Shown here piece after piece: positions 671-9,925 of a stretch of DNA of 64,000 bases (position 1 is its first letter; every line of letters starts with the position of its first letter). Location of the stretch: contig OZ220744.1 in NCBI GenBank assembly GCA_965116925.1, forward strand, positions 5,632,001 to 5,696,000, given 5' to 3'. The position numbers and the translations under genes are program-made. This DNA comes from Candidatus Poribacteria bacterium (GTDB lineage: Bacteria; Poribacteria; WGA-4E; PCPOR2b). The notes under the pieces were generated by a model. That model was not told the DNA's origin and did no database searches. It was given only the letters and a program-made list of their open reading frames with translations.

Positions 671-699
671 TTGACATCCACTTAAAATCGGTATAGATT
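671..699 (+). promoter_or_regulatory. sigma70-type promoter
   Basis: TTGACA-N17-TAGATT upstream of the gene at 767. Confidence 0.6.
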
Positions 700-766: not shown

Positions 767-1807
767 ATGAGTGATATGAATGTTGGTATTGTTGGACTGG
801 GTTGGGTCGCCGGGGCGCATATTGAAACCTTTAAGGCGGTTCAAGGTGGAAACGTTACAGCGATCTGCTCCCGACGCGAACACGATGAAGCGGCATTGGA
901 AGCAGAGTTTGGCACACCGCTGAAAGCCTATACGGACTATGAGGCGATGATAGCAAATCCAGACATACACATCATAGACATCTGCACCCCCCACCCGTTT
1001 CACGCGGATCAGGCTATCGCCGCTGCAGAAGCAGGGAAACATCTGATCATCGAAAAACCGATCTGCCTGACCTATCAGGACGCCAAACGGGTGCGCGATG
1101 CAATACGAAAAGCAGGCGTGGGTGTATGTGTCTGCTTCGAGTGCCGATACAGCGCACACTTCACGATGATCCGTTCAGTCATTGACGAAGGCTTGCTCGG
1201 CGATCTGCACTACAGCGAGGTGGATTATTATCACGGCATCGGCCCTTGGTACGGTCAATACGACTGGAACATCAAAAAAGACTTCGCCGGCAGCAGCCTG
1301 TTGACAGCAGGTTGCCACGCACTTGATGCCTTGCTGTTCTTCATGGATGAGAAGGTCGAGGAGGTCACCAGCTACCACACGCAATCGACGGGGAAGGATT
1401 TCGTCCCGTATGAATACGAAACCACCAGCGTCACGATTCTCAAGTTTGAGGGTGGGAACAAAATTGCGAAGGTCACTTCCTGTGTGGACTGCCTCCAACC
1501 TTACTACTTCCATATCCATCTGGTCGGCAGCGAAGGCAGCCTGTTAGACAACCGGATCTACTCTGCGAAATTGAAGGGCATGGACAAGAGCCAGTGGAGC
1601 ACGCTTGAAACTTCGCTCATTGATTCGGGGGATGTGAGTGATCATCCGTATGAACCACAGTTCCAAGCGTTTATTGATAGCATCGGTACAGGCGAACCGA
1701 TGCCCCTGACCGATTTCGATACAGCATTTGAATCGCACCGCGTTGTCTTCGCTGCAGACCTCTCGGCAGCAGAAGGACGACCTGTCAAACTGTCCGAATT
1801 CGATTAA
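767..1807 (+). CDS. Gfo/Idh/MocA family oxidoreductase
   Basis: GIVGLGWVA Rossmann motif, EKP motif, GGAGG RBS. Confidence 0.9.
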
Positions 1808-1819
1808 CGGAAAACTCCT

Positions 1820-2488
1820 ATGTTCATTCGGTATTCACTTCTCTGTTTATTTTTAACAGTGGCGGTCAGCGGCTGGGCGGCTGAGGACAAATTTCAACTC
1901 AAGCCGTTACAGCCGAAACGACCAACCTCCACCGCCCCTACCTGAAGCGCGTGACCCGGCGAAGGGGCACCGCTTCGGGGAAGCGGCATTCAGACCAAAT
2001 GGGCGATATCTCTGCGTTATGTGGATACGGAGAAGGAACGTCCGCGCTGGCGGACAACGTTGAATTACCGATTGATAGACAGACTGCAAGTCGGCATTGA
2101 GTATAATCCTGTGGCTTCGGAAATATCGCCGCTTTTTAGCCTATTCCTGTTCACAGAAACGGATATCCGCCCTGGGCTATTTCTCGGCACAAGCTCCGAC
2201 CGCATCGGCTCTCCCGCGGGCGAACAAGCCTACTTTTTCACTGCTACCAAACGACTACCGTATATCCCACTCTCAGTGTATGGGACTGTGAATTATTCTG
2301 AGTGGGATGATGAACTCAATTTTCCTTTTGGTGCCAGCGTTGACTTTGGCAAAGGTTTTTCTGTGCGTGGGATGTATGATGGAAAAGAGCCTCACCTGAT
2401 GTTCAACTATTTCTATAGACAGCACGGCGTTAGTCTGATGTACGTGTGGTTTGAAACATTTGGATTCGCGATGTCCACGACGTTTTGA
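1820..2488 (+). CDS. Secreted/outer-membrane beta-barrel-like protein, candidate selenoprotein (UxxU; in-frame TGA at 1943 and 1952)
   Basis: ATG 1820 gives a signal peptide (MFIRYSLLCLFLTVAVSGWA) and continues ...TAPT-TGA-SA-TGA-PGEG... in frame into ORF 2021..2488. Hairpins follow the TGAs. Amphipathic strands and a C-terminal Phe. Confidence 0.65.
1946..1986 (+). promoter_or_regulatory. Candidate bacterial SECIS hairpin(s)
   Basis: CCGCTTC-GGG-GAAGCGG (1970-1986), with the loop starting 22 nt after the second TGA. Alternative hairpin AGCG.GTGACCC-GGCGAA-GGGGCAC.CGCT (1946-1974) follows the first TGA. Confidence 0.5.
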
Positions 2489-2523: not shown

Positions 2524-2554
2524 AAAAAAGGCGAATGGATAGAACCATTCGCCT
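2524..2554 (-). terminator. Rho-independent terminator (array family copy 1)
   Basis: AGGCGAATGG-loop-CCATTCGCCT followed by a T-run on the minus strand. Confidence 0.85.
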
Positions 2555-2582: not shown

Positions 2583-4049
2583 CTAGTGGGGCCACTCTCG
2601 CACCTCCGACATCGCACTGTCATAATCGACCGCTTTGTCATAAACTCGCCAAGCACTATTCTCTTTACGCATCTTAACAAGCTGATATCCGGACGAGATA
2701 AAAATTGATGTCGAATGATCCGATGAAATATTCGGCATCTCCGGTGCCGGTGTTCTCAACCGGAAGTGAAATTCATCGCCTACATATTCGCTGCTCACAA
2801 CCTCCGCCTGACTTATCGTTTCACGGATTGACTCACCCAGCACTGGTTTAAACTGATGTATAATTTCGACGACGTCATCCGGTGCATCATCTGACACATC
2901 TACGGAAATCTCAGAGCCTACGGAAATCTCAGAGCCATCACCATAATAACCATGGTTGCTACGCATGTACTCCTCTGTCCCTAACAAGCTCATTGCCCCA
3001 AAATCAGAATCCCTAAACGCCTCCACGTAAGCATACATCACGTCTTCAGCAGACTGATTTGTGCTTTCTGATGAAACAGATGTGTCAGTAGTGAAATCCC
3101 ACTCTGTGTCTAGATCAAATTCCGTTTCTGTCGCGAATTGTGCCAGATCCGTTTCGTCGAGTTCAGCGTACAAATCGTCAATCAGTTCTTTCTCTTCAGC
3201 AGATGCTGCTGAAGCAATTTGTGGCGGATTATCCCGAACTTCCATATCTTGAGTAGAATCAGCAGTTTGGGCAGCCAAGCCTTCCGGGCTACTTTGTGGG
3301 CGCGCCGTGCCATCTTCCCATGGCGACAGATACACGCGTTCCGCAACTGTGGGTGCATTCAACTGACGTATCCCAATGTAACCGATAAAAATAAGCACAA
3401 TCAGTGCTGCCGCACCAACCGTTATTTTAGATGCCGTTCCAACTTTCATGACAGTTAGACCTCCCGTATAAAGTTTTTTTAGTGTCATTGTGGGAGAAAC
3501 GAAGATGCCTGTCAGAAGGTATTGCAACCGTTTGGAGAGTTGTCGCTTCGCACGCGACAGCCGAAACGCAATTGCGTTGTATGACAGTCCATGCGTACTC
3601 GTCAGTTCATCGTAACTCGCACCCTCCAGATAGAAAGCACGCGCAATGTCCCTGTCTTTCTGCGGAAGCGTCTCCATGGTCCGGCGAATCAATTCCCTCT
3701 GCTCTAACCGTGCCAATCGCTCATCAGGTGAATCCTCCGTTTGCAACAGATGTTCACTCACGTCATCAAGGGATACGGTCTCACCCTGTTGTTTACGGAG
3801 CCAGTTTCGGGCGCGATTTCGCGTAATCTCTGCCAACCAACTTTTGAATTTGGTCGCATCCTCAAGCTGGCTTAACCCTTGATACGCGTTGAGAAAGGCA
3901 TCCTGCACGACCTCTTCAGCATCATGGGAATTGTCCACAACCCCGACAACAATTGCATAAACGAAGGCGTGGTACGACCGCATCAGGTCAGCAAATGCTC
4001 CTTCATCCCCACTTTGGGCACGATAGATAAGCGTATTCTCTTTAGTCAT
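2583..4049 (-). CDS. ECF sigma factor fused to TM helix and extracytoplasmic (NTF2-like?) domain, copy 1
   Basis: sigma2 (DAEEVVQDAF...FKSWL..I.RN), sigma4 (LPQKDR...LEGASYDEL...RLSRAKRQL), TM ITVGAAALIVLIFIGYIGI, acidic linker, C-terminal EDVMYAY...EFHFRL...KMRKENSAWRVYD. Confidence 0.88.
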   Translation of the reverse strand: MTKENTLIYRAQSGDEGAFADLMRSYHAFVYAIVVGVVDNSHDAEEVVQDAFLNAYQGLSQLEDATKFKSWLAEITRNRARNWLRKQQGETVSLDDVSEHLLQTEDSPDERLARLEQRELIRRTMETLPQKDRDIARAFYLEGASYDELTSTHGLSYNAIAFRLSRAKRQLSKRLQYLLTGIFVSPTMTLKKLYTGGLTVMKVGTASKITVGAAALIVLIFIGYIGIRQLNAPTVAERVYLSPWEDGTARPQSSPEGLAAQTADSTQDMEVRDNPPQIASAASAEEKELIDDLYAELDETDLAQFATETEFDLDTEWDFTTDTSVSSESTNQSAEDVMYAYVEAFRDSDFGAMSLLGTEEYMRSNHGYYGDGSEISVGSEISVDVSDDAPDDVVEIIHQFKPVLGESIRETISQAEVVSSEYVGDEFHFRLRTPAPEMPNISSDHSTSIFISSGYQLVKMRKENSAWRVYDKAVDYDSAMSEVREWPH

Positions 4050-4108: not shown

Positions 4109-4167
4109 TTTTTTGTGCTGAGAGATATTTTATCCATTTTTTCGAGAGCAAGCAATAAAAAAGGCGA

Positions 4168-4299
4168 GGTTCATGTAAAAAGAAAGTGCAAAACACGAAG
4201 CGAAATCGTAGGGGCAGGGTCTCCCCGCCCGCCGTAAGGGTTGGGGGACCCAACCCCTACGAATATTCGGTTTCTTTGCACTAAATCTTAACATGAGCG
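4168..4299. mobile_element. MITE-like element (GGCTCATG TIR family, 132 bp) carrying a GTAG REP doublet
   Basis: Imperfect TIRs; 8-bp TSD AAAGGCGA at 4160-4167 and 4300-4307; inserted into the array terminator. Confidence 0.8.
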
Positions 4300-4327
4300 A
4301 AAGGCGAATGGACAAAACCATTCGCCT
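4300..4327 (-). terminator. Array terminator copy 2 (T-tail displaced by the MITE)
   Basis: AGGCGAATGG...CCATTCGCCT stem. Confidence 0.7.
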
Positions 4328-4355
4328 CGTGAAGTCTTGGGGATAGGTTTGCGAT

Positions 4356-5747
4356 CTAGTGAGAGTGGGGCATCTCCGGCAGCTCTGACTGCATCCTGTC
4401 CAAATCGAACACAGTGTCATAAATTAGCCACACCCCATTCTCCTCTCGCATCTTAATAAGCTCGTATGAGGCACCGATAAAAACCGTTATGCCCCGATCC
4501 GAGACAATCGGCGGCCTATCTAATGCCGGTGCTGCTAATTGGAAGTGGAATTCATCGCCGACATATTTGCTGCTCTCAATCTCTGCTTGACTGTTCCTTT
4601 CATACATCAATTCAGCTATCTTGTCGACAATTTCAAGCGGTAGTTCACCAGCATTATCACGGTAGCTATGCCTGTACTCCTCTGTCATTAACGATTCCAG
4701 CGCGTCACTGTCGAAATTTCTATACGCCTCCAAATAAGCATACATTACATCTTCAGCCGATTGACCTATGCTTTCTGATGAGGCAGATATGTCGGTAGTA
4801 AAGTCCGGCTCTGCGTCTAGATCAAAGTCCGTTTCTATTGGGAATTGTGCCATATCTGTTTCGTCGGATTGATCGGAGAAATCGTCAATTGGCTCTATTC
4901 CTGCTGCGGATTCTGCTGTGGTAATTTGTGGCTGAACGCCTCCGCTTTCCGCATCTTGAGTCGTACCAGCTGGGAGTTCTTCAGGGATGTTTCGTGGGCG
5001 TTCAGTGCCATCCTCCCACGGCGACAAATACACACGCTCCTCGACTGTAGGCGCATTCATCCGGCGAACTCCAACGAAACCGATGAAAATGACTGCAATT
5101 AACGCTGCTGCACCAATTGTGACTTTAGGCACCGTTTCAATTTTCATGACGGTTAGCCCCCCCGAATAAATTTTCTTTAGCGTCAGTCCGGGAGAAACGA
5201 AGATACCAGTCAGAAGGTATTGCAACCGTTTGGAGAGTTTCTGCTTGATGCGAAAAAGCCGCAACCCTATTGCGTTGTATGATAGCCCATGCGTGTTAGT
5301 CAGTTCGTCGTAGCTTGCACCCTCCAGATAGAAGGCACGGGCAATCTCCCTGTCCTTTTGTGGAAGCGTCTCCATGGTCCGGCGAATCAACTCTCTCTGC
5401 TCCTGTCGTGTCAGTTGCTCATCAGGAGAATCCTCCGTTTGAAGTATCCCTTCACTCACTTCATTAAGGGGTACGGTCTCGCCCCGCTGTTTTCGGAGCC
5501 ATTGCCGGGCACAGTTTCGCGCAATCTCTGCTAACCAACTCTTGAATTTGGTTGTATCCTCAAGCTGTGTCAACCCTCGATAGGCACTGAGGAAGGTATC
5601 TTGCACCACCTCTTCGGCATCATGGGGATTATTCACACCTCCGATAACAATTGTATAGACAAAGGGATAGTATTCCCGCATTAGGTCGGCAAATGCCCCT
5701 TCATCCCCAGTTTGGGCGCGATAGATGAGCTTATCCTCCTTAGCCAT
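4356..5747 (-). CDS. ECF sigma-TM-extracytoplasmic domain fusion, copy 2
   Basis: Paralog of 2583..4049; start set at MAKED by alignment with the paralogs. Confidence 0.88.
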   Translation of the reverse strand: MAKEDKLIYRAQTGDEGAFADLMREYYPFVYTIVIGGVNNPHDAEEVVQDTFLSAYRGLTQLEDTTKFKSWLAEIARNCARQWLRKQRGETVPLNEVSEGILQTEDSPDEQLTRQEQRELIRRTMETLPQKDREIARAFYLEGASYDELTNTHGLSYNAIGLRLFRIKQKLSKRLQYLLTGIFVSPGLTLKKIYSGGLTVMKIETVPKVTIGAAALIAVIFIGFVGVRRMNAPTVEERVYLSPWEDGTERPRNIPEELPAGTTQDAESGGVQPQITTAESAAGIEPIDDFSDQSDETDMAQFPIETDFDLDAEPDFTTDISASSESIGQSAEDVMYAYLEAYRNFDSDALESLMTEEYRHSYRDNAGELPLEIVDKIAELMYERNSQAEIESSKYVGDEFHFQLAAPALDRPPIVSDRGITVFIGASYELIKMREENGVWLIYDTVFDLDRMQSELPEMPHSH

Positions 5748-5775
5748 GACTCTTCGTTCCCCCCAACATCCTATC

Positions 5776-5805
5776 AAAATACAGTTCTGAATTTTTTTCT
5801 AGCAC
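5776..5805 (-). promoter_or_regulatory. Putative ECF promoter GTGCTA-N17-GTATTT
   Basis: Same motif and position as in the paralogs. Confidence 0.65.
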
Positions 5806-5876: not shown

Positions 5877-6951
5877 TCACTGCCTTTCCAATTTCATACG
5901 TCCCCAAAGGGTGGCCTGATTACTTGACACCTCCACCGACAGAGAAGGATCACGAATCACCCACGTCGGGTCAGTATCTGAACCCGGATCCTCAGTAAGT
6001 TGCGCCCGATTACCCCCGTTGGCATCCATCACATAAATGTCTGGCTGCTGACCAACCTGAAATGCGTGGAACGCAATCCACCTCCCACTGGGAGACCACG
6101 CAGGCGCACGGTCTTCCCATGGGTGGCGGGTCAGGTTCACGACGTCCGCTCCATCCGGGTTCATTACATAGATATCGTCCTGACCCCCGATTGGACTGAA
6201 ACGCTATCTGTGTCCCATCGGGAGACCATGTAGGCGCAGCGTCTAGGGCAGGGTGGTTGGTTAAATTGACCTGCTTTCTACCATTTGAACCCATCACATA
6301 GATCTCCCCATTCCCATCCCGATTGGAAAAGAACACAATTTTTGAACCGTCAGGAGACCAAGAACCAACCTCATCAATTCCCGGCGACCATGTTAAATTT
6401 TTCAACACGATCCCTTCGATATCGATAACACAAACGTCAGTCATACCATCTGGTGACCCATCAGTGCTGGTGAGAGCTAACCGCTTCCCATCGGGAGACC
6501 ATTTTGGCGATAGGTACGTTTGACCACCAAACTGTTTAGTCACCTCTTTGATTTGACGGATTTGATGACGAGGCCCCGAAAATTCAGGAAGAATAACAGG
6601 AGTCTCCAAATATATAAAAGTGACAAATGGGTCCTGTGGATCATGCACATGGTAAGCAATATACTTTCCATCCGGTGACCAAGCAATTGGACCGTATCTA
6701 CGATTACTAAACCGCCAAGGTATTTCAGGTATTTCAAATAGTGGTATGTCAACCGGTATTTCAAATCTGAATCCATCGGCATCAATCAAATAAACTGCCG
6801 TCTGAAAAAGGGGGTCTCGATCTCGATCGGATAAAAACGTGATGGTGCCGGTCCACTTGTCGGCGGCAGCCTGTTTAATAAACAGGCTCCATGAAAGTAG
6901 GAGTATTATGGCACCAAAAATCTTTTGATGCACTGCGAGTTGCTTCAACAT
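5877..6951 (-). pseudogene. PD40/TolB-like beta-propeller protein, frameshifted
   Basis: ORFs 6010..6984 and 5877..6164 together match paralog 25217..26296; 5 nt shorter near 6183-6188. Confidence 0.8.
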
Positions 6952-8551: not shown

Positions 8552-9925
8552 CTACCTACTCACACGATCGAACAGAACGACATAAATTCGCCACACCCCA
8601 TTCTCTTTTCGCATTTTAGCCTGCTGATATAGGCAGGTAAACATTGGCATTCTTTGGTCTGAAATACCCGGTAGCTCTAGTGCCGGCATTCTCAATCGGA
8701 AGTGAAATTCATCGCCCACATATTCGCTGCTTACAAGCGATGACTGCCCTCGTAGTTCCCGGAATGCCTCAACTAGCATTTGATGCTTAGTTTCGACGAC
8801 TTCGTCTGACATATTTATGGAATCCCCACCAACAAGATCATCATGGACGCTACGCCTATACTGCTCTGTCATTAACGATAGCATCACCTTAGAATCAGCA
8901 TCTCGCCACGCTTCTACGAAAGCATACATCACATCTTCAGCCGACTGACCTGTGTTTTCTGATGACGCGGATATGTTGGTAGTGAATTGCTCTACCTTTA
9001 GATCAAATTCCGTTTCTGTTGCGAACTGTGTCATATCTGTTTCGTCGGATTGATCGAAGAAATCATCAATAGACTCTGTTCCTGCTGTGGACGCAGCAGC
9101 AATCTGTGGCAGGTGGTTCCGGTTTTCTGTATCTTGAGTGGTGTCAGCTAGGAATCCTTCGGGGTTATTTCGTGGGCGTGTCGTTCCATCCTCCCACGGC
9201 GACAGATACACACGCTCCTCGACTGTGGGCGCATTCATCTGGCGTAGCCCAACGAAACCGATGAAAATGACTACAATCAACGCTGCGACCCCCACCGTTA
9301 TTTTGGGGACAGTTCCAACCTTCATAACGTTTAGACCTCCCGAATAAAGCTTTTTGAACGTCAGTCCGGGAGAAACGAAGATGCCTGTCAGAAGATAGCG
9401 CAACCGTTTGGAGAGTTGCCGCTTAATGCGAAAAAGGCGAAACGCAATTGCGTTATATGACAGGCCATGCGCCCTAGTCAGTTCGTCGTAGCTGGCACCC
9501 TCTAGATAGAATGCGCGGGCAATGTCCCTATCCTTTTGTGGAAGCGTCTCCATTGTCCGGCGAATCAGTTCCGTCTGTTCCTGTTGTACCAATTGGTCAT
9601 CAGGTAAGTCCTCTGTTTGAAGTATCCCCTCACTCACTTCATCAAGGGATACGGTCTCGTCCCTCTGTTTGCGGAGCCACTGTCGCACACAGTTCCGCGT
9701 AATCTCTGCCAACCAATTTTTGAATTTGGTTACATCTTCAAGTTGTCTTAACCCTCGATAAGCACTGAGGAAGGTATCTTGTACCACCTCTTCGACATCA
9801 TGGGGATTGTCTACAATTCTTATAACAATCGTATAGACAAAGGGGTAGTATTCCCGCATCAGGTCGGTGAAAGCCCCCTCATCTCCAGCTTGGGCACGAT
9901 AAATGAGCGTATTGTCATTAGCCAC
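8552..9925 (-). CDS. ECF sigma-TM-extracytoplasmic domain fusion, copy 3
   Basis: Paralog; GTG start. Confidence 0.88.
   Translation of the reverse strand: MANDNTLIYRAQAGDEGAFTDLMREYYPFVYTIVIRIVDNPHDVEEVVQDTFLSAYRGLRQLEDVTKFKNWLAEITRNCVRQWLRKQRDETVSLDEVSEGILQTEDLPDDQLVQQEQTELIRRTMETLPQKDRDIARAFYLEGASYDELTRAHGLSYNAIAFRLFRIKRQLSKRLRYLLTGIFVSPGLTFKKLYSGGLNVMKVGTVPKITVGVAALIVVIFIGFVGLRQMNAPTVEERVYLSPWEDGTTRPRNNPEGFLADTTQDTENRNHLPQIAAASTAGTESIDDFFDQSDETDMTQFATETEFDLKVEQFTTNISASSENTGQSAEDVMYAFVEAWRDADSKVMLSLMTEQYRRSVHDDLVGGDSINMSDEVVETKHQMLVEAFRELRGQSSLVSSEYVGDEFHFRLRMPALELPGISDQRMPMFTCLYQQAKMRKENGVWRIYVVLFDRVSR

Follow-up and report, generated by a model that had tools for sequence, protein, structure and literature searches.

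Bacterial proteins with two selenocysteine (Sec) residues in a UxxU motif have been catalogued among Prx-like proteins (PF00578), NF041115 metal-binding proteins and FmdB-family proteins (TIGR02605) (PMC13188914), and the motif also occurs in Group 4 [NiFeSe] hydrogenases, for which a single downstream SECIS has been proposed to serve both codons (PMC13582414). Sec proteins assigned to the outer membrane include GSU2204 of the MtrB-PioB family (NF041027) and the TonB-dependent receptor FCYXU (NF049945), each with one Sec. Among transporters, where Sec was described as 'extremely uncommon', the ABC permease SaoP, an inner-membrane helical protein mostly of Firmicutes, carries one Sec per monomer, and two such residues are predicted to meet at the transporter gate as a diselenide or a metal ligand (bioRxiv 10.1101/2022.07.06.499078). 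Twelve-stranded barrels with a lumenal N-terminal plug are known from FapF (5O65) and the COG4313 channel Pput2725 (4RL8), which have amyloid or hydrophobic-substrate genes as neighbours. On the functional side, the periplasmic thioredoxin TlpA keeps the metal-binding Cys pair of ScoI and CoxB reduced, and thiol ligands act in the outer-membrane copper transporter OprC (PMC7558416); PcoB is a further copper channel.

We analysed a gene in a 64,000-nucleotide window (the whole stretch of Candidatus Poribacteria DNA under study). Homolog comparison and structural models identify its product as a genuine, widespread and routinely truncated outer-membrane barrel with two predicted Sec residues. 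Like the catalogued UxxU proteins and the hydrogenases, it would carry two Sec in a CxxC-derived motif and has Cys homologs, and its two codons would, like those of the hydrogenases, share one SECIS lying downstream; unlike it, none of them is a membrane barrel, and none matched it in sequence. GSU2204 and FCYXU likewise belong to other families, the NF041027 and NF049945 models matching none of the 112 aligned members of the present family, and in contrast to SaoP both Sec would lie in one chain. The likeness to COG4313, FapF and SphA proteins lies at the level of the fold (12-stranded barrel, lumenal N-terminal plug): identity to FapF and Pput2725 is 8-13 %, the barrel of about 160 residues has much shorter loops, and here the plug is predicted to carry a Sec/Cys pair and the partners are TlpA and YHS proteins. 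The parallel with TlpA/ScoI/CoxB, OprC and PcoB is one of functional analogy only, the partner here being a soluble YHS-TlpA fusion; PcoB was a weak fold match (Z 8.6) and OprC is TonB-dependent.

Searches with the 222-aa protein returned no Pfam match at E up to 1, no matching family in NCBIfam (June 2026; any match in one of 112 members), nothing better than E 0.69 in the PDB by sequence, and no match to HMMs of double-Sec families (NF041115, TIGR02605, PF00578, MbdU, TsoB and others). YjbH (E 0.005, one fusion) and YaiO TIGR04390 (E 0.004, one of 112 members) were considered and set aside as too weak for membership. The family was absent from a 2026 table of 119 selenoprotein families (PMC13188914), and was not met in the available portions of PMC9312934, PMC12013277, PMC13326102 and the Haft and Gwadz preprint. 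The BSepDB supplement text also gave no match, which is weak evidence as that file may not include the family table. We found no description of the family in the literature, and other selenoprotein catalogues could include it. Among the lists checked, two predicted Sec on the plug of an outer-membrane channel thus appear to be a new selenoprotein architecture, in keeping with an earlier note on this DNA that had suspected an unusual selenoprotein type.

Reading frame, homologs and the two TGA codons

That note had proposed a hidden ORF with two in-frame TGA codons, and a single frame from 1820 to 2488 contains both, at 1943 and 1952. Opened by the ATG at 1820, it has TGA at 1943-1945 and 1952-1954 (codons 42 and 45), passes into the called ORF 2021-2488 and ends with Phe followed by a TGA stop at 2486-2488. 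The residues around the TGAs read T-U-S-A-U-P-G-E-G and follow a Pro/Thr linker and a hydrophobic leader, judged by eye to be a putative signal peptide. The features discussed below are as follows, in window positions.

671..699, plus strand: sigma-70-like promoter match (10/12 consensus) before a probable two-gene unit
767..1807, plus strand: Gfo/Idh/MocA oxidoreductase gene (Pfam PF01408, E 3e-27), ending 12 nt upstream of the barrel gene
1820..2488, plus strand: full gene, 222 aa, closed by a TGA stop, with two UGA codons predicted to be recoded (from frame, homologs and substitution pattern)
1820..1879, plus strand: putative signal peptide, 20 aa, with an A-x-A-like end (by eye; stand-alone homologs have similar hydrophobic leaders)
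1880..1942, plus strand: Pro/Thr-rich linker plus the predicted opening arm of the plug hairpin (site of YHS and/or TlpA fusion in relatives)
1943..1954, plus strand: predicted U-S-A-U motif (Sec42, Sec45), followed by a conserved PGEG (TGA/TGA or Cys/Cys in homologs)
1970..1986, plus strand: predicted bacterial SECIS hairpin, 7 bp, GGG loop at 1977-1979 (from pairing, covariation and an invariant loop G)
2000..2485, plus strand: predicted 12-stranded outer-membrane beta-barrel, residues 61-222, with terminal Phe (from AlphaFold2, fold matches and hydrophobicity)
2529..2554, no strand assigned: 10-bp hairpin, terminator-like on both strands, between convergent genes (from terminator scoring)

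The CxxC-like spacing of the two TGAs had been thought unlikely to result from random decay, and the arrangement does exceed chance. Genome-wide, TGA-NNN-NNN-TGA occurred at 6,299 sites, of which 77 were backed by a G-loop hairpin of at least 7 bp; open frames on both sides (at least 25 codons before and at least 60 after) were present at two of these 77, so that 2 of 6,299 sites matched on hairpin and frames together, one of them being the gene under study. Among 14 same-genus homologs, codons 21-41 showed 76 synonymous versus 25 non-synonymous changes, a ratio like that of the barrel part (495 versus 191), indicating that the stretch before the TGAs evolves as coding sequence under purifying selection. 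Conservation upstream of 2021, on which the original proposal had been staked, is accordingly present.

The expectation that read-through homologs would have TGA or Cys at both positions was borne out in DNA, where no other residue was encoded: 137 of 146 homologous loci (a number that includes near-duplicates) were TGA/TGA, nine were Cys/Cys with TGY/TGY codons, and none was mixed. Matches were found in 29 of 41 related genomes, with both TGAs in all 26 full-length matches and short C-terminal fragments making up the rest. More distant loci from genome and metagenome collections were scored TGA/TGA by script in 89 of 90 cases, the last having both TGAs in a shifted frame, and both TGAs were retained down to about 36 % identity. 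Close relatives (88-92 % identity) were titled Candidatus Poribacteria; beyond Poribacteria, the family extends to genomes labelled Acidobacteriota, Armatimonadota, Latescibacteria, Eisenbacteria and Chloroflexota, its members being almost always annotated as hypothetical proteins in truncated form. Within the phylum of one Armatimonadota-titled locus, 50 of 301 genomes matched, some with stop-free copies, and five genomes held a 2-TGA copy plus a stop-free copy. Three loci (L054, L055 and L056, in G010, G011 and G022) and second matches in G005 and G018 comprised short C-terminal fragments only, which suggests gene loss or remnant copies. The gene was not found in any of the six genomes of genome family f2, though selA was present in all six.

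Truncation by gene callers, also anticipated earlier, was evident in protein databases: among the best 120 of 338 homologs, nearly all start past the second TGA. CxxC occupied the motif site in 11 database proteins. Trp stood at one or both sites in six, including four of the best 120 with Trp at both, as might be expected if UGA were read as Trp; P0015 matches the TGA locus L051 and P0047 the TGA locus L053, so these Trp calls look like code-4 artefacts of gene calling. In this genome TGA is an ordinary stop, ending 823 of 2,750 long ORFs, which argues against genome-wide recoding of UGA to Trp or Gly, as conservation of both TGAs to about 36 % identity and purifying selection upstream argue against a pseudogene. 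The possibility that the TGAs are sequencing errors, raised at the outset, was not borne out either, both codons being kept across homologs; a contig from a public run, which may be the source sample, is also identical to 1723-1963. The chance that any of these three explanations applies is negligible, and we regard them as refuted by the conservation of both TGAs. Related sequence was present in RNA-library runs, with one contig spanning the gene, although contigs cannot show transcription; most such runs had a small share of words only.

In a quick, midpoint-rooted tree of 76 rows, Cys forms fell in two spots nested among Sec forms. The root was untried, so the direction of change is a hint only that the Cys forms derive from Sec forms by reversion, a step called rare in bacteria (PMC13188914). 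The database protein P0125, with C-V-G-W at the motif, was nested among UxxU forms in the same tree and is probably a CxxU intermediate called with TGA as Trp.

SECIS hairpin and Sec machinery of the host

The hairpin first noted behind the second TGA, CCGCTTC-GGG-GAAGCGG, was located as described at 1970-1986, with arms at 1970-1976 and 1980-1986 and its loop 22 nt past the second UGA and 31 nt past the first. A 3-nt GGG loop, 7 bp, these two distances and an energy of -9.1 kcal/mol agree with the bSECIS consensus (loop of 3-9 nt, stem of 4-16 bp, G in the first two loop positions, 16-37 nt from the UGA and energy of at most -7.5 kcal/mol; PMC13188914). The stability of the hairpin alone was ordinary (z about -0.6 to -0.7), so the case for it as a SECIS is covariation. 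Among 70 of 105 distinct sequences, picked by hand for spread, its stem was 90.6 % paired, compared with at most 59.6 % in slid controls, and two-sided (compensatory) changes were seen in six of seven pairs. These amounted to 89 cells with two-sided changes versus 22.5 in shuffles, and the covariation score was reached by none of 500 shuffles. Stem pairs made up three of the top four mutual-information pairs, the stem persisted under 32 different amino-acid words, and the first loop G was unchanged in 122 of 122 distinct sequences. The best hairpin had its loop at +22 in 82 of 115 TGA sequences versus none of seven Cys sequences; in the other 33 TGA sequences, belonging to some subfamilies, it was weaker or elsewhere.

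An alternative hairpin behind the first TGA (about 1944-1976), suggested at the same time, does fold in this sequence (-19.7 kcal/mol, z -2.05) yet is not conserved: at 63.3 % paired it was no better than its -1 slide control, and a second SECIS for the first UGA was ruled out. Since the loop at 1977-1979 lies within 16-37 nt of both UGAs and only one hairpin is conserved, a single SECIS is the simplest arrangement, and probably serves both codons.

The search for Sec genes called for by the proposal found a complete set in this genome (one contig, 99 % complete). selA, selB, selD and tRNA-Sec (selC) all scored above curated cut-offs, with selA, selB and selC clustered and selD elsewhere (G000:C1:2373929-2377461 and 6018631-6019551); selD carries an in-frame TGA of its own with a hairpin at +17. 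selA was also present in 41 of 41 related genomes and in five of five distant hosts tested. Within the phylum of the Armatimonadota-titled locus, 37 of 39 carriers of the 2-TGA gene had selA (the two lacking a selA match being fragmented assemblies), as did three of five matching genomes without a 2-TGA gene, versus 80 of 151 genomes sampled from that phylum; this comparison covers 44 of the 50 genomes with a match, six whose match was partial or weak having been left out, and kin among them are not independent.

A SECIS is likewise required by tRNA-ReC (SelC*-type) systems, by which one or both UGAs could be read as Cys to give CxxC, CxxU or UxxC, and tRNA-ReC turns up preferentially in genomes that have UXXU hydrogenases, five of five Armatimonadota among them (PMC13582414). 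The extra SelC*-type tRNA and dedicated SelB* of such a system were not found in this genome, which has one tRNA-Sec, one ordinary tRNA-Cys and one selB over cut-off, with no second tRNA-Sec-like match above the cut-off. Its sole UCA tRNA is a 94-nt tRNA-Sec beside selA and selB, whose unbulged 8-bp acceptor stem and G discriminator, set against what we take to be the identity features of tRNA-ReC, argue against UGA-to-Cys recoding in this host. We consider a Cys reading very improbable; on the comparative evidence, both UGAs are almost certainly read as Sec.

Two Prx-like genes elsewhere in the genome also contain in-frame TGAs. The one near G000:C1 996,697 (W-U-G-S-C) is followed at +21 by the GGA loop of an 8-bp hairpin, and directly before the gene lies a TlpA gene (about 995,000) whose product is a candidate for reducing the barrel. 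Behind the TGA of the other, near G000:C1 1,526,837 (W-U-P-N-S), no simple hairpin was found.

Predicted barrel and plug

AlphaFold2 modelling of residues 21-222 (112 sequences, Sec entered as Cys) produced twelve barrel strands with a pLDDT of 94.1 and a pTM of 0.85. The ten residues around the motif had a pLDDT of about 90, and residues 38-39 and 52-53 flank it as bridges. A model of a natural CxxC homolog (pLDDT 89.8) displayed the same barrel and plug hairpin. The best fold matches included FapF (Z 16.9, rmsd 2.4, 165 aligned), Pput2725 (Z 16.4, rmsd 2.5, 164 aligned) and KdgM. Hydrophobicity alternated clearly in most strands and weakly in three, and Phe222 was conserved in 88 % of sequences; the model is thus an even-stranded (12), amphipathic barrel with a C-terminal aromatic residue, matching the alternating beta-strands and terminal Phe picked out earlier. 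Judging from these models, the protein is very likely a 12-stranded outer-membrane barrel.

UxxU had at first been pictured on a beta-barrel. The barrel was upheld, and the models show the motif inside it, on an ordered plug hairpin, rather than as a free arm. In both models the FapF alignment runs upstream of the motif along the FapF plug, the N terminus of which loops back to the periplasm (PMC5557850), and the Pput2725 alignments start at residue 2, which is lumenal (PMC4493636) and is where the motif aligns. Residues 38-53 probably form a hairpin plug that enters the pore from the periplasm and returns, with UxxU close to its tip, a position derived from the first and last aligned residues only, in models that have Cys at the Sec sites. 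Coevolution analysis (324 rows, effective number about 171) picked up several pairs between neighbouring strands; no plug-barrel contact was among its top 40 pairs, the highest Sec-barrel pairs coming at ranks 111 and 123.

The fold also resembles autotransporter beta-domains (Z 13-15), and domains fused to family members are always N-terminal of the barrel, as they might be if the motif threaded the pore and placed UxxU with fused TlpA/YHS on the cell surface. In both models, however, the autotransporter alignments begin at the motif and extend no further upstream (EspP 1023/1024, NalP 802-805), whereas the upstream residues track the FapF hairpin with its N terminus back to the periplasm. 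A passenger linker through the pore is a type Va trait; the hairpin returning to the periplasm is seen in the models, as a prediction only. The TlpA/YHS partner is, moreover, more often a separate exported protein. We find an autotransporter-like arrangement improbable and retain the lumenal plug.

Genomic partners and proposed function

At 85 of 116 non-Poribacteria loci, and at 52 of 64 with long flanks, a TlpA thioredoxin (CxxC), a YHS domain or both either precede the motif in the same protein or are encoded on the barrel gene's strand no more than 1.5 kb away. TlpA was present at 72 and YHS at 69 of the 116. Most commonly, the partner was an exported YHS-TlpA protein with a gene of its own, whose start lies a few bases at most from the barrel stop. 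PF00578 matched only the separate TlpA domain of fusion proteins, and YHS domains with extra Cys pairs were co-conserved and fused. Widely recurring copper-specific neighbours were not found, MerR being near five of 128 loci and PCYCGC near three. No TlpA/YHS partner was present at any of 27 Poribacteria loci, and the genome under study, 99 % complete, had no YHS match; because the YHS-TlpA partner is missing here, one of its unlinked TlpA-like genes would have to serve.

Two further arrangements were observed among the relatives. In a fusion subfamily (L117:3107-4585 and related loci), the chain runs from a signal peptide through an unnamed domain bearing two pairs of Cys to TlpA, U-P-L-U and finally the barrel; the gene before it often encodes an exported, Met/His-rich protein of 500 aa, likewise unnamed and without a Pfam match. 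At L069, L070 and L086, a TonB-dependent receptor gene directly precedes the barrel gene and YHS-TlpA follows it.

Locally, the Gfo/Idh/MocA gene adjoins the barrel gene in 16 of 16 same-genus loci, and the two are probably co-transcribed. Promoter matches numbered three versus 2.3 expected, so promoter evidence is weak. At 11 other Poribacteria loci no adjacent Gfo/Idh/MocA ortholog was found (one distant 21 % match), and since the pairing does not extend beyond the genus, we rejected it as a core partner. Downstream, the terminator-like hairpin is probably a repeated element (2519-2560, 4145-4330): a second copy is split between sites near 4150 and at 4303-4330, and the hairpin attracts many extra contigs. 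Three paralogous ECF sigma factors, each with a long extension at the C terminus, lie at 2583-4049, 4356-5777 and 8552-9925 (minus strand), interleaved with W-S-P-D-G repeat proteins; of the three, only 2583-4049 was scanned.

We propose that the protein is an outer-membrane channel with a di-selenol plug that binds soft metals or gates by redox, and that TlpA keeps reduced. We put the probability of this whole account at roughly 0.6, Sec, barrel and partner linkage being drawn from comparison and the function being what we infer. SelB, acting on the single SECIS, would deliver Sec at both codons, and the product would be exported to the outer membrane, where the di-selenol/diselenide pair would sit at the pore constriction. 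There it may bind a soft metal such as copper, or switch the plug by its oxidation state; a periplasmic TlpA thioredoxin would re-reduce the pair, and YHS domains would handle metal. A metal or redox role is suggested by analogy with TlpA, established as a reductant of copper-binding Cys pairs (PMC7558416), and with the thiol ligands of OprC. A more specific version, which also takes in a dominant Sec form, apparently derived Cys forms and one SECIS for two UGAs, is an envelope system not described before: a pore gated by an intrachain diselenide/di-selenol pair on the lumenal plug, reset by periplasmic YHS-TlpA and moving soft metals or electrons over the outer membrane; we hold this tentatively, at a little under even odds.

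The main rival is a purely redox role, in which UxxU is a catalytic oxidoreductase or electron relay that passes TlpA electrons via the pore to extracellular acceptors (disulfides, peroxides or metalloid oxyanions), with no transport. TlpA matches YHS in its frequency as a partner, redox enzymes make up the majority of selenoproteins (PMC13188914), and a conserved polar set (R66, R78, E94, D127, R128, K144, D187 and H192) could form an active site. Against this, the co-conservation and fusion of YHS domains with extra Cys pairs suggest metal handling, and UxxU here lacks a surrounding thioredoxin fold. We therefore view a purely redox role as rather unlikely, and favour the channel with a metal-binding or redox-gated plug.

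The Sec form of this family is apparently commoner than the Cys form, contrary to the usual pattern, and the family offers a compact case for whether one SECIS decodes two close UGAs. Transporters are described as very rarely containing Sec, and if the proposed function is true, the family would represent a new path for metal or redox traffic over the outer membrane.
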